64,000 nt of DNA from an uncultured Spirochaetota bacterium (lineage in GTDB: Bacteria > Spirochaetota > Brevinematia > Brevinematales > JAOACQ01): positions 1,440,001-1,504,000 of the forward strand of contig CAVYGN010000002.1 of assembly GCA_963768055.1 (NCBI GenBank). Reading direction: 5' to 3'. Both the position numbers and the translations under genes were made by a program. The notes below the pieces were generated by a model, which saw nothing but the letters and a program-made list of their open reading frames with translations, was not told the DNA's origin and made no database searches. How positions within the stretch are numbered: the stretch's first letter is position 1; every line of letters starts with the position of its first letter. Shown piece after piece: positions 5,549 through 58,412 of the stretch.

Positions 5549-5692
5549 AAACGCTCGCTTCATAATGATCTCTAATTGATAGCCTTTTTTTAATAATTGA
5601 TAATAAAAATTGCTTAATTCCGATAAGAATATTATTTTTAATATAAAAACGGATGATTTTTCGTTCATAATTAAAAGAAAATCCTGTTGAAC

Positions 5693-5719
5693 TTTAAGAT
5701 TTTCCTTCATTACCGATAA
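5693..5719 (+). promoter_or_regulatory. Putative sigma28 promoter of motAB
   Basis: ACCGATAA 5712-5719 with an imperfect TTTA/TTAA -35 element 14-15 nt upstream; second TCCGATAA at 5619-5626. Confidence 0.5.
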
Positions 5720-5755: not shown

Positions 5756-6583
5756 GTGGGTATCGGTAGAAAGGGCCGCGATCTGGCCACGATCATAGGT
5801 ATACCGTTCGGTTTCGGAATGCTTCTGATAGCATATGTAATAGAAGGGGGTAACTTAGGCGCTCTGGTATCCAGCGTTTCGCCCTTCCTGATAGTTGTCG
5901 GCGGCACGATAGGAGCGACTATGGTGTCTTTCAAGATGGAAGACATATTCAATATCCCGAAGCTGATTGCCCAGGCCATGAGCGAAAAAGTTGTTCCTAC
6001 CAAAGATCTTCTGGAAATGTTTATTACCTTCTCGGAAAAATCGAGAAGAGAGGGCATATTGAGCCTTGAAAACGATATCGAGGATTTGACCAGCATCGAC
6101 CCGCTTATGTTCAAGGGTATGAAGCTTATAATAGACGGAACGGACCCCGAGGTTGTCAAGCATACTATCTCTAACGATATTTTCCTGTACGAACTGAAAA
6201 GAAGGCACGAAGCGAGCATATTCGAACAGGCGGGGGGGTTTTCACCGACTATGGGGATCGTCGGCACAGTTCTGGGCCTTGTAAACGTTCTGGGCAGGCT
6301 TTCTTCGCCGGAAGCCCTTGGCCCTGCCATAGCCCTCGCTTTCCTTGCGACCCTTTACGGTATCAGTTTTGCGAACCTGTTCTGGCTTCCCATAGCTAAC
6401 AAGATAAAGCTTAATTGCGCAAGTACCAAGCTCCAGAAGGAGCTTGTGCTGGAAGCCATGATAAGCATACAGCAGGGCGAGAACCCCAGCATCATGAAAG
6501 ACAAGCTCGAAGATTACCTCAACGAAAAAGAGAAGCAGAAACTTAAACAGCAGGAAAGCCCGACGGGCGAAAGGGAAAGGTAA
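5756..6583 (+). CDS. motA: Flagellar stator MotA
   Basis: DLATIIG, IVVGGTIGA, SRREGILSLE, AGGFSPTMGIVGTVLGL, AFLATLYG, GENP motifs; GTG start with GGAGG. Confidence 0.93.
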   Translation: MGIGRKGRDLATIIGIPFGFGMLLIAYVIEGGNLGALVSSVSPFLIVVGGTIGATMVSFKMEDIFNIPKLIAQAMSEKVVPTKDLLEMFITFSEKSRREGILSLENDIEDLTSIDPLMFKGMKLIIDGTDPEVVKHTISNDIFLYELKRRHEASIFEQAGGFSPTMGIVGTVLGLVNVLGRLSSPEALGPAIALAFLATLYGISFANLFWLPIANKIKLNCASTKLQKELVLEAMISIQQGENPSIMKDKLEDYLNEKEKQKLKQQESPTGERER

Positions 6584-30419: not shown

Positions 30420-30448
30420 ATTTTATCCTTACCTGAAGCGATTGTCAA
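30420..30448 (-). promoter_or_regulatory. sigma70 promoter of the rpmF-plsX-fab operon
   Basis: Minus strand TTGACA-N17-TAAAAT. Confidence 0.75.
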
Positions 30449-30463
30449 AAAAAGCGGCTGAAT

Positions 30464-30553
30464 AAAAAACCCCGCCTTTTTTTCAAATGGCGGGGTTCAC
30501 TCACTAAAGTGAGTTTGCAGAATTGGGAGGGGAATCTAATTCTGCGTAAATCA
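30464..30553 (-). ncRNA. Candidate sigma28-dependent small RNA (three hairpins)
   Basis: Stem GCAGAATT/AATTCTGC with loop AGAUUCCCCUCCC; stem ACTCAC/GTGAGT; terminator AACCCCGCC/GGCGGGGTT ending in a U6 tract; sigma28 promoter directly upstream; 5' end estimated. Confidence 0.65.
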
Positions 30554-30559
30554 ATTGAA

Positions 30560-30586
30560 TTATCGGACAAAGCGTAACATTTTTTA
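30560..30586 (-). promoter_or_regulatory. sigma28 promoter
   Basis: Minus strand TAAA-N15-TCCGATAA (consensus TAAA-N15-GCCGATAA). Confidence 0.7.
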
Positions 30587-30666: not shown

Positions 30667-30789
30667 GGGCGCTTCAAAAAACCGCCTTTCAGGCGGCAAG
30701 GTAGCGCCCATAGGGTTTATGCCCGTAGGGTGCGGTTTCATTACAATTAGAACATTATTTATTACAAGGTTAGTTTTTGGAAACTGCCC
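30667..30789. mobile_element. MITE-like element, copy 1
   Basis: Ends GGGCGCTTCAAAAAAC and GTTTTTGGAAACTGCCC, TTAA on both sides; no ORF. Confidence 0.75.
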
Positions 30790-48578: not shown

Positions 48579-49808
48579 ATGAAGTATTTATTTTCGTTCG
48601 CGCTGAAGAACATTCTGCGTTACAAAAGAAGAACAATACTTACTTTTATCGTACTTTCCGTGGGAATAGCTTTTTATCTTATGATGGTGGGAATTGTGCA
48701 GGGTTATAAAAAACAGTCAATCGATAATTTTATTCAGTTTGATACCGGGCATTTAAAGGTTAGAAGCGCGATTTACGATAAAGACGACCCTTATTCAATT
48801 TCAAATTATATAGAAAACGCGGAAACGGTGAAAGATGTCGTGAAGAAGAAAAATTATGTCAAGTCCTTTACTGAAAGGATAGAATTTATGGCGGAAGCGG
48901 ACAACGGCAGGGATTCGTCTCCATGCGTGGCTGTGGGAATCGATCCGGAAAGAGATCCGGAGGTCTTTTCTCTTTCCAATTATATCGTAAAGGGCAGGCT
49001 TGAAAAAAACGGGGTTTTATTGGGCAAATCTCTGGCTAAAGACCTCGGGCTTTCTATCGGAGATTCCTTTTTTATCACATTCCGGAACAGGGGAGGAATG
49101 TTCGACTCGATCGAACTTGCCGTTTCGGGGCTGGTCGAATCGGGTGATCCGGTGGTCAATGGTTCCATGCTTTTTATCAGGCTTGACGAGGCAAAGCAGT
49201 ATCTTGCCACTTCGAATGTGACGGAAATAACCCTGATTACAGATAATCCGGATAAAGATGATATCTATCGGAACGACCTGAAAAAACAGCTTCCGGAAAA
49301 TCAGATCGCAACATGGAGGGAGCTGGCCCAGGGAATTGAAGGGGCGGCTAAACAGGATGAAATTTCGACATATATATTCGTGATTTTTATCTCTATCATC
49401 GCAATTGTCGGAATAGTCAATACCATGATGATGTCGGTATTTGAAAAAGTCAGGGAAATAGGAACTCTGAAGGCTATGGGCATGACAGACAGCGATGTCC
49501 GGGGCATATTTGTAATAGAAGGATTTATTATAGGGACGGCTGGAGGGATTATCGGGATGATATTAGGCGGCCTCCTTGTATGGTACTTTGTGGCCGTAGG
49601 TTACGATATTACGGCTATGATGGGGAAAAACAATGAAAATATGATGGCTTCTTTAAGGCTTGCGGGAACGATCCGCGCGATCTGGGATATACCATCCTTT
49701 TTCTATGCTTTTTTCAGTTCGATCATAGCCAGTATGCTTGCCAGTTACTACCCTGCGAAAAAAACCACAGGGATGCAGGCAGCCGAATGCCTTAGGACTA
49801 TACAATAG
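48579..49808 (+). CDS. FtsX/LolE-type ABC permease, type A paralogue
   Basis: RYKRRT, VFEKVREIGTLKAMG; ends AECLRTIQ like 46079-47302. Confidence 0.9.
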   Translation: MKYLFSFALKNILRYKRRTILTFIVLSVGIAFYLMMVGIVQGYKKQSIDNFIQFDTGHLKVRSAIYDKDDPYSISNYIENAETVKDVVKKKNYVKSFTERIEFMAEADNGRDSSPCVAVGIDPERDPEVFSLSNYIVKGRLEKNGVLLGKSLAKDLGLSIGDSFFITFRNRGGMFDSIELAVSGLVESGDPVVNGSMLFIRLDEAKQYLATSNVTEITLITDNPDKDDIYRNDLKKQLPENQIATWRELAQGIEGAAKQDEISTYIFVIFISIIAIVGIVNTMMMSVFEKVREIGTLKAMGMTDSDVRGIFVIEGFIIGTAGGIIGMILGGLLVWYFVAVGYDITAMMGKNNENMMASLRLAGTIRAIWDIPSFFYAFFSSIIASMLASYYPAKKTTGMQAAECLRTIQ

Positions 49809-54635: not shown

Positions 54636-55193
54636 TTATCTAACCCAATTTACTTTTACACTGGCGAATTCAATACTTTCAAATTCTTTACAGAACCTGG
54701 CCAGAATTGTCCTGGCGAAACCTTCCGTTTCCACCCCGAGTTCCTCAAGGCATGAGACTTCTACAGGCGCCCCTGTAGATTTAATATTTAAAGCGCTATG
54801 AATTAAAGTCGATATCGGGCTTGCAGTAGCGATTGAAACCGAAAGTTTTCTTTTATTGAAATAAAGATCATCCCCATTCCTTTCCACAAAAAGACCTTTC
54901 AGGTGCCCGTTCAATTCATCGCAAAGAATCGACATGAAGAGTCTTTGGAGGCAGATTGTCCCCGGAAGGTCCATATTGAAAATCTCAATTATGAAACTGA
55001 GCATTTTATCGGAGGAGATTCCGTCTTTTAATAAAATGTCTTCAATATCGACCATTTCCAAAAGATCGACATTAACAGGTCCTGAGAAAGATATAATGCT
55101 GTTTCCGGACAATCCGAAATTTTTATAAGCGAAATGAGATGTTAATTGAGTCCCATCGTATCTAATCTGTTTTTTGATTAATTTTGCCTTCAT
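54636..55193 (-). CDS. DUF366-family protein
   Basis: YDGTQL--HFAY, MVDIED, LQRL, R-GDDLY, KLSVSIAT recognised family pattern. Confidence 0.75.
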   Translation of the reverse strand: MKAKLIKKQIRYDGTQLTSHFAYKNFGLSGNSIISFSGPVNVDLLEMVDIEDILLKDGISSDKMLSFIIEIFNMDLPGTICLQRLFMSILCDELNGHLKGLFVERNGDDLYFNKRKLSVSIATASPISTLIHSALNIKSTGAPVEVSCLEELGVETEGFARTILARFCKEFESIEFASVKVNWVR

Positions 55194-57005: not shown

Positions 57006-58412
57006 CTATTTTGCCGGCAGCGGAGGTATTTTCAATTCCTGTCCGGGGTAGATCAGGTCCGGATCCTGGATCTGGTACTTGTTCGCCCTCCAGATAATAG
57101 GCCACAACGAATACTGGTCGTTATACATGAAGCCCGATATCTTCCATAGACAATCGCGGTTTCCCGGCCTCAGTTTAACGGTGTAGATCTGGAATTGTTC
57201 CCTGGCAAGTAAAATATCCGACATTCTTGAAGCTTCATTTGCATAATCGATAGCATCCAGGTATTCTTCCTTATTATAGGAATCTTCCGCCAATTTTAAG
57301 TATTTTTCAACCATTTCCTGAGTAATATCTTCATCTTTCACCGGTGATATCAGATTTGTCTGATTTTGAGGAGAAGTAACACTCTGGCTTTCTGTATTAG
57401 TGGAAATTGAATTGGAATTTGAATCGGATGAAATATTCGAATTCGATATGTTATCAGGGCTCAAAACATCGTCGCCGATATAGATATAGGGTAATTCGAT
57501 ATAAGCGAATAAACTCAGGGAACTCCTGAGAAAACTGCCTTTCATCCTTGTTTTTAATTGGTCTAATTTTTTCTTGGCTGAATTTATTGCGTCGGATGCC
57601 TGCTTCTTCTCCTTTTCTATTTCCTTTTGTTTATCTATATCGACTGTTTGCATCATGTTTGTACTGCCTTTCACCGAACTTTGATATGCGCTTTCAGCCT
57701 TTTTTTCGGCGGCATCGATCAGAGACTCAGCCTCTTTGGCCTTCGATATAGTGTTATCGAGTTCGCCATTCGTAAGCGAAGTCCTCGCATCATCAATAAG
57801 CGGTTCTGCCGCTTTAAGATCGTCCATAGCGAATTGTTTGACTATTTCCTTGTCGGCCGCTTCATCGTACTGGTTCTGAGCCGTCGCCACCTCGTCTTTG
57901 GCCTTGTTTACCATACCGGAACTGTAGTCTGCAAGGTCCTTGACTTTAGGATACAGCAAACTCCCGTTAGAATATATTGAGTCGTAATCATGTTTATTAT
58001 AAATTTCCTTGAGATTAGCATAATCATTGGTAACTCCGCCATATTTATCAGGCTCAAGTTTGCCTGCGAAATTCTGGTCGGCCGTAGTCAGCATAGCGCC
58101 GCATTTCTGGAAAATGTCCTCCGCCCTCGCAGTCCTTGCACTTTCGTAAGACTTGTCGGCGGCATTTTTGGACATTACAGCCTTGTCATGCGCTTCCTGA
58201 TTTTTCTTCGCATCAAGGAGATTATTGGCCTGATTCAAATCTTCCTGGGCTTCCATGTAATCCTGCGCAGCGTAAACAGGTGCGTCAACTGTTTTGGCTC
58301 TTTCCAGGGCGGTTTTTGCGTCCTCTATCTCTTTTGTCGGGACAGCAGGCCCGCAGGAGTAAAGGATAAAAATAAGAAAACTCGCTCCGATAATTAAACT
58401 GATATTTTTCAT
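57006..58412 (-). CDS. LysM-domain lipoprotein, LipL71/LruA-like
   Basis: Lipobox ILYSC after ATG 58412 (GGAGG RBS); helical repeats; C-terminal DCLWKIS, LWPIIWRAN, DPDLIYPGQELKIP. Confidence 0.75.
   Translation of the reverse strand: MKNISLIIGASFLIFILYSCGPAVPTKEIEDAKTALERAKTVDAPVYAAQDYMEAQEDLNQANNLLDAKKNQEAHDKAVMSKNAADKSYESARTARAEDIFQKCGAMLTTADQNFAGKLEPDKYGGVTNDYANLKEIYNKHDYDSIYSNGSLLYPKVKDLADYSSGMVNKAKDEVATAQNQYDEAADKEIVKQFAMDDLKAAEPLIDDARTSLTNGELDNTISKAKEAESLIDAAEKKAESAYQSSVKGSTNMMQTVDIDKQKEIEKEKKQASDAINSAKKKLDQLKTRMKGSFLRSSLSLFAYIELPYIYIGDDVLSPDNISNSNISSDSNSNSISTNTESQSVTSPQNQTNLISPVKDEDITQEMVEKYLKLAEDSYNKEEYLDAIDYANEASRMSDILLAREQFQIYTVKLRPGNRDCLWKISGFMYNDQYSLWPIIWRANKYQIQDPDLIYPGQELKIPPLPAK

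Follow-up and report, generated by a model that had tools for sequence, protein, structure and literature searches.

A conserved small RNA gene of Brevinematales with a sigma-28-type promoter and complementarity to the fliP ribosome-binding site

Flagellar small RNAs and C-rich loop RNAs

Promoters of the sigma-28 (FliA/SigD) class have a -35 element TAAA and a -10 element GCCGATAA, about 15 nt apart. In RsaE/RoxS of Firmicutes, a small RNA (sRNA) with a C-rich loop pairs with G-rich Shine-Dalgarno (SD) sequences and blocks translation initiation; RNAs of this type carry several C-rich motifs and have metabolic targets. The RNA described here, about 90 nt long, resembles RsaE/RoxS in having an unpaired C-rich loop that matches a G-rich SD. 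However, it has a single loop, and with the 3' arm of its hairpin the predicted pairing reaches about 20 bp, on a single flagellar mRNA. RsaE is absent from the 25 weak Rfam matches of the window, the 64,000-nucleotide stretch of DNA analyzed in this study.

Control of flagellar assembly by sigma-28 sRNAs is already known from Escherichia coli and Campylobacter. The E. coli RNAs UhpU, MotR, FliX, and FlgO are described in the abstract of Melamed et al. 2023 (PMC10578931) as sigma-28-dependent, UTR-derived sRNAs, and were studied with Hfq. As far as that abstract goes, the likeness lies in flagellar-sigma sRNAs feeding back on flagellar synthesis by base pairing. The present RNA differs in that it belongs to a stand-alone gene, that no Hfq was found in the genome (Pfam PF17209; genome 94.75% complete), and that the predicted pairing is with an export-gate ribosome-binding site (RBS). 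The two are also unrelated in sequence, as judged from the lack of an Rfam match.

Campylobacter jejuni CjNC1 and CjNC4 (Le et al. 2015, PMC4626219) and CJnc170/FlmR (Konig et al. 2024, PMC11187230) are given in the respective abstracts as FliA-dependent, and cells that overexpress CJnc170 have shorter flagella and lower motility. For these sRNAs, an action on the 5' UTRs of flagellar genes of an earlier class is predicted or demonstrated there, with repression that is Hfq-independent in a reporter system (PMC4626219, PMC11187230). The late-to-earlier feedback logic is like that proposed below. However, the phylum is another one, homology is not detectable, and the Campylobacter targets that the abstracts describe are sigma-54-dependent, whereas the fliPQR-flhB operon considered here has a sigma-70-like promoter. 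The export-gate operon is absent as a target from the abstracts on the E. coli and Campylobacter sigma-28 sRNAs (PMC10578931, PMC4626219, PMC11187230). A full-text literature search found no paper on small RNAs of Brevinema, and by title and abstract it found nothing relevant on spirochaete sRNAs with FliA, or on sigma-28 together with an sRNA and fliP.

Anatomy and distribution of the RNA gene

All elements of the original prediction, which placed an sRNA with its promoter on the minus strand between 30586 and 30464 and a separate sigma-70 promoter for rpmF behind it, were found where they had been placed:

30681..30697, minus strand: terminator-like hairpin of the GH94 phosphorylase gene, which lies upstream of the sRNA; separate from the sRNA
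30560..30586, minus strand: sigma-28 (FliA)-type promoter, TAAA (30586-30583), 15 nt, TCCGATAA (30567-30560)
30517..30545, minus strand: hairpin 1, 8-bp stem in which GCAGAAUU (30545-30538) pairs with AAUUCUGC (30524-30517)
30537-30525, minus strand: 13-nt loop of hairpin 1, AGAUUCCCCUCCC
30499..30514, minus strand: hairpin 2, ACUCAC-UUUA-GUGAGU, 6 bp
30464..30497, minus strand: G+C-rich Rho-independent terminator, AACCCCGCC / GGCGGGGUU with a U run ending at 30464
30420..30448, minus strand: sigma-70-like promoter of rpmF, TTGACA-17-TAAAAT (11/12), downstream of the sRNA terminator
30383-30186, minus strand: rpmF coding sequence (L32), the downstream gene

Transcription of the sRNA is predicted to start at about 30553-30551. 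The 95 nt from 30556 to 30462 fold with -35.6 kcal/mol, compared with -16.0 +/- 3.2 kcal/mol for 200 dinucleotide shuffles (z -6.12), none of which folds as well (0/200). The loop of hairpin 1 is C-rich (a CCCCUCCC loop) and unpaired in the centroid structure. A 41-aa ORF (30445-30570) overlaps the sRNA; in relatives its start codon is lost or stops stand in frame, and since neither start codon nor frame is kept, the locus appears to be non-coding. With its own promoter and terminator, no conserved ORF, an open conserved seed, and a complementarity to a target that is kept in relatives (see below), the locus has the properties of an sRNA gene.

In the window's own genome, G000, and in G001, G002, G003, and G005, the sRNA lies directly upstream of rpmF; in at least seven genomes it is at least 2 kb from rpmF or on another contig. 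Its flanking genes vary by genus (GH94/PlsX, amylase-like, MTHFR/HD, TPR, GAPDH, metallo-beta-lactamase, DHH/PrmC). Because the RNA sits between unrelated genes in relatives, it is an independent gene, neither a leader nor a 3' UTR. The phosphorylase has a terminator of its own, so the sRNA is not the 3' end of that gene; together with the changing neighbors, this disposes of the case in which the hairpins are merely the end of the phosphorylase mRNA. The idea of a self-contained unit of about 90 nt is thus borne out by anatomy, by changing neighbors, and by an overlapping ORF that lacks conservation. It was also expected to be undescribed, and no Rfam 15 family reaches its gathering threshold in the window, nor is there anything meaningful at E values up to 10. 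The best sub-threshold matches are driven by the terminator (PyrR, 27.9 bits against 54; ncr1175, 21.6 against 60). The sRNA is a new RNA family, with a stand-alone gene rather than an origin in a UTR.

A BLAST search against 40 relatives recovered the sRNA core from 17 further genomes, spread over several genera and families, at 79–95% identity. A covariance model, R1, comprising the leader and hairpins 1 and 2, was built from 24 sequences. By this model, 18 of the order's 35 genomes (Brevinematales) contain exactly one copy each, distributed as follows:

Families with carriers: f1, 11/12 (G000 included); f2, 1/1; f3, 2/2; f5, 4/4
Families without carriers: f4, 0/4; f6, 0/12

Among 151 genomes sampled from the phylum, R1 has no convincing match outside the order; the weak matches are G020 (E 1.6e-3), G059 (8.6e-3), and a second site in G015 (5e-3). 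Scanning one genome per prokaryote species for an exact 20-nt pattern gave 14 stretches, and all of these duplicate loci already found; the records concerned are Brevinematales, Brevinematia, or Spirochaetota MAGs. Among metagenome contigs the exact-pattern scan returned 17 stretches, comprising five duplicates, eight new sRNA copies (one of them cut by the contig end), and four chance matches of the pattern (L091, L093, L099, and L101) that lack promoter and hairpins.

The loop of hairpin 1, its 3' arm, and the following A (AGAUUCCCCUCCCAAUUCUGCA, 22 nt) are invariant in 24/24 sequences, while the 5' arm changes solely to G-U pairs or, in one genus, is shifted. Since the 3' arm and loop of hairpin 1 are the same throughout, covariation is absent from this hairpin, and the invariance points to a constraint beyond folding. 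Over the 24-sequence alignment 90.4% of cells are paired, compared with 29–44% when partners are slid. Hairpin 2 has compensatory double changes at three of its six pairs (8 cells), with 95.7% of cells paired, and the covariation score was reached by 0/500 shuffles. The terminator stems are lineage-specific in sequence, occupy the same place, and are each followed by a T run; covariation is seen for hairpin 2 and for the terminator. Relatives therefore answer the question of conservation that had been raised for the locus: promoter and loop are kept in 24/24 copies, and hairpin 2 covaries. Genus g9 (loci L013-L016) is distinguished by an extra 5' hairpin of about 45 nt between the promoter and the C-rich hairpin, by a 5' arm of hairpin 1 shortened to GCAGA, and by a split fliP site (UUUGCAGA ... 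GGGAGGGGAU).

The TAAA-N15-TCCGATAA at 30586-30560 agrees with the sigma-28 (FliA/SigD) pattern. This pattern has three matches in the window against 0.64 expected, and 3/100 shuffles reach three, so that by itself it is not beyond chance within the window. The weight of the promoter comes from its conservation, given that the pattern alone is non-significant. The other two matches (55006-55030, minus; 58367-58393, plus) were discarded; each falls within or abuts coding sequence, and neither is followed by such a unit. An alignment of the 24 sRNA copies on the -10 element has CCGATA in every one (24/24), with 1.2–1.8 bits at the -35 TT(T)AAA and 0.1–0.4 bits in the spacer. The base that follows CCGATAA in homologues is T in 14, A in nine, G in one, and C in one. 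An invariant CCG and a variable base after CCGATAA fit sigma-28, and not the sigma-70 -10 hexamer GATAAT.

FliA is encoded in G000 (TIGR02479, 276.6 bits; curated cut-off 189.6), and fliA is above the cut-off in 34/35 genomes of the order. The motif TAAAGTTT...CCGATA occurs at a conserved position, 145–164 nt upstream of the best flagellin orthologue, in 19/30 genomes (five exact, 14 with one mismatch). Within G000 it is found at 0/17 MCP genes and one of three flagellin genes, and at flgM with one mismatch; a one-mismatch match is met by chance at 9% of long ORFs in G000, and in-genome support for a sigma-28 regulon is thin. Despite the result for MCP genes, an encoded FliA and a conserved motif upstream of flagellin are what use of this sigma factor for late genes would produce. 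The proposed sigma-28-type promoter of the sRNA is thus backed by its conservation in 24/24 copies and by the same motif upstream of flagellin across the order.

Two side observations concern other putative promoters of this type. The position of the flagellin promoter (loci L173-L194; G000 C2:234522-234549), 145–164 nt before the start codon, implies a long conserved 5' UTR, as judged from sequence. Upstream of motA (5756-6583; MotA Pfam), TTTAAG-N14-CCGATAA is present at window positions 5690-5719 (plus strand), about 36 nt before the start, and a second CCGATAA is found at 5621-5627 (plus strand), about 90 nt further upstream. It may be that motAB is sigma-28-dependent, possibly from tandem promoters.

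Complementarity to the fliP ribosome-binding site

The invariant element was scored by duplex energy against 7,874 crude ORF starts of G000. The best of these is the RBS of fliP at -36.2 kcal/mol (mean -10.2, sd 3.9; runner-up -27.5), in energies that ignore accessibility, and the 3' arm of hairpin 1 must first leave its 8-bp stem. In a prefiltered scan of both strands of G000, the fliP site is beaten solely by the antisense strand of the sRNA gene itself. The site is located as follows:

G000 C2:503461-503441: fliP site UUUGCAGGAUUGGGAGGGGUU; the GTG start of an ORF of 254 aa follows after 5 nt

This ORF is FliP (PF00813, 236.8 bits) and is followed by FliQ, FliR, and FlhB. The predicted duplex is 19–21 nt long (about -36 kcal/mol). 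The sRNA contributes 5'-CCCCUCCCAAUUCUGCAAA-3', consisting of the loop, the entire 3' arm of hairpin 1, and the linker, and fliP contributes its SD and about 12 nt upstream. The region upstream of fliP contains a sigma-70-like promoter and a leader of about 90 nt, which folds no better than shuffles (z -0.99); a local hairpin takes in the GTG start codon. The further high-scoring duplexes of G000 are inside coding regions, and another top match, at a 386-aa ORF, served as a control, with no complementarity kept in 21 relatives.

The original prediction of a motility-linked translational regulator with an anti-SD loop finds support in these comparative data, in that the loop matches the RBS of a flagellar gene. 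That gene, fliP, is outside the window, and the targets named within the window proved unspecific. The motA RBS GGAGGGAAU exists, but it pairs with -12.6 kcal/mol, and 25.8% of the 7,874 ORF starts are equal or better. The RBS near 1722 (given as ~1712) pairs with -16.3 kcal/mol, reached by 7.5% of ORF starts, and that near 48579 (given as ~48568) with -17.1 kcal/mol, reached by 5.4%. All three were rejected, since they pair no better than many genes.

The fliP locus was compared in 30 genomes (17 sRNA carriers and 13 without the sRNA). Among carriers the duplex is -22 kcal/mol or stronger in 16/17 and -27 kcal/mol or stronger in 15/17, with G010 weak at -22 kcal/mol. Among genomes without the sRNA, -22 kcal/mol is reached in 1/13. 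This one, G011, is 86% complete and has a fliP site without an assembled sRNA; its sister genomes carry the sRNA. Family f4 gives about -18 kcal/mol, from the G-rich SD alone, and family f6 gives -6 to -11 kcal/mol, which amounts to nothing. The conserved complementarity usually includes UGCAGAAU upstream of the SD, which is dispensable for ribosome binding. When the sRNA core of a genome is cofolded with the fliP leader of that same genome, the net gain is -9.5 to -34 kcal/mol for 16/17 carriers.

The exception is G006 (L025, L046), where the sRNA core is intact and the fliP leader has merely GGGAGG (-14.7 kcal/mol; cofold gain -3.3). G006 is 89% complete with 5% contamination, is the largest bin, and has duplicate matches for another gene; the bin may be mixed, or the genome may point to other targets. 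Since it keeps the sRNA without the extended fliP site, fliP would not be the only reason for the upkeep of the RNA. Because the sRNA core is constant, it shows no covariation with the target. It may be that the carrier families belong to a single clade, in which case the co-occurrence of sRNA and fliP site could go back to few evolutionary events.

The fliP leader (L040 4534-4440, minus strand; loci L041-L062) has features of its own. A conserved 5' hairpin, GUAGUAGUA...UACUACUA, stands right after the sigma-70-like promoter and is kept even in family f4, which is without the sRNA; it may be mRNA-stabilizing. A second conserved hairpin, GCACA...UGUGC, lies 3' of the first.

Other sequences related to the loop were also recorded. 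A coiled-coil protein of 2,940 aa, whose N-terminus carries a membrane segment (G000 C1:399800-390981, minus strand; loci L153-L171), has a GGGAGGGGAAU-type RBS in many of the carriers, but AAGGAGGAG in two genomes of f4, which is without the sRNA. The duplex predicted for this RBS has -21 to -28.5 kcal/mol in 11/16 sRNA-bearing genomes, G000 counted, and the RBS may be a second target. Ten places in G000 (for example C1:112214, C1:721229, C2:9333, and C2:1155842), none of them in the window, carry a multi-copy insertion element whose identical ends contain GTGGGTGGGGAATCT, a 15-nt near-complement of the sRNA loop. As the end of a multi-copy element, this match was treated as coincidence. Another element has three copies in G000.

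Proposed role and alternative explanations

The evidence makes it reasonably likely that 30553-30464 (minus strand) is a stand-alone, FliA-transcribed, trans-acting sRNA of about 90 nt that occludes the fliP SD in a late-to-early negative feedback. Dependence on FliA, pairing in vivo, and the repressive direction are what we infer from promoter and complementarity. With late flagellar expression under way, FliA-holoenzyme would make the sRNA. Its C-rich loop would contact the fliP SD, the duplex would then extend into the 3' arm of hairpin 1, and the 30S subunit would be kept off the fliP mRNA. As fliP is the first gene of the fliP-fliQ-fliR-flhB operon, synthesis of new export gates (FliPQR-FlhB) would be lowered, and the sRNA probably feeds back on flagellum assembly in this way.

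Of the other explanations, one would deny the RNA a gene of its own and make it the 3' end of the phosphorylase mRNA, the rpmF leader, or a small-protein gene. This reading, which the position just upstream of rpmF in five genomes and the overlapping 41-aa ORF might invite, is barely credible, and comparison with relatives already contradicts it: a separate terminator follows the phosphorylase and a separate promoter precedes rpmF, the neighbors differ, with at least seven genomes in which the sRNA is at least 2 kb from rpmF or on another contig, and the start codon and frame of the ORF are not conserved. It is improbable, though a little less so, that sRNA and fliP target are right but that a housekeeping sigma factor transcribes the gene, placing it outside the flagellar hierarchy. 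TTAAAA-17-GATAAT, with GATAAT lying within CCGATAAT, is a weak 9/12 sigma-70 site, and the sigma-28 motif is seen at 0/17 MCP genes. A sigma-70 site would not, however, account for the invariant CCG before ATAA or the variable base after CCGATAA, and the same motif is conserved upstream of the flagellin gene across the order.

The choice of fliP as target is more open to challenge. The RNA could be a general anti-SD regulator or could bind or titrate a protein, with the fliP match secondary, and we regard this as unlikely but deserving of serious consideration. The constancy of 22 nt across four families, with no covariation, would suit a bound protein or several targets as well, G006 retains the RNA without the fliP site, and the coiled-coil protein has a GGGAGGGGAAU-type RBS in many of the carriers, but AAGGAGGAG in two genomes of f4. 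On the other hand, no other duplex in the genome comes near the fliP duplex in length, and complementarity beyond the SD is kept in 16/17 carriers. A protein partner is also without a known candidate: no Hfq was found in G000 (PF17209), and although CsrA is encoded near flgK/flgL-like genes (G000 C2:559687-559839), the sRNA has no GGA motifs for it. Pairing with fliP might instead activate, for example by stabilizing the mRNA or opening an inhibitory fold, and the local hairpin that takes in the GTG start codon would speak for this. Activation is nevertheless very unlikely, because the duplex covers the SD itself and the leader folds no better than shuffles.

If the sRNA does repress fliP, a further and tentative possibility is that it forms the output arm of a flagellar assembly checkpoint. 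Completion of hook-basal bodies would free FliA, FliA would make the sRNA, and translation of FliPQR-FlhB would be turned off. As the export gate nucleates a new flagellum, the number of periplasmic flagella per cell end might thereby be fixed. In this scheme a second arm may reach other G-rich RBSs, such as that of the giant coiled-coil membrane protein. The comparison yields a sharp prediction, in which one invariant 22-nt element pairs with one conserved site at the fliP RBS. A further result is an RNA family that Rfam lacks and that can serve as a marker for four families of Brevinematales, whose carriers are mostly uncultured.
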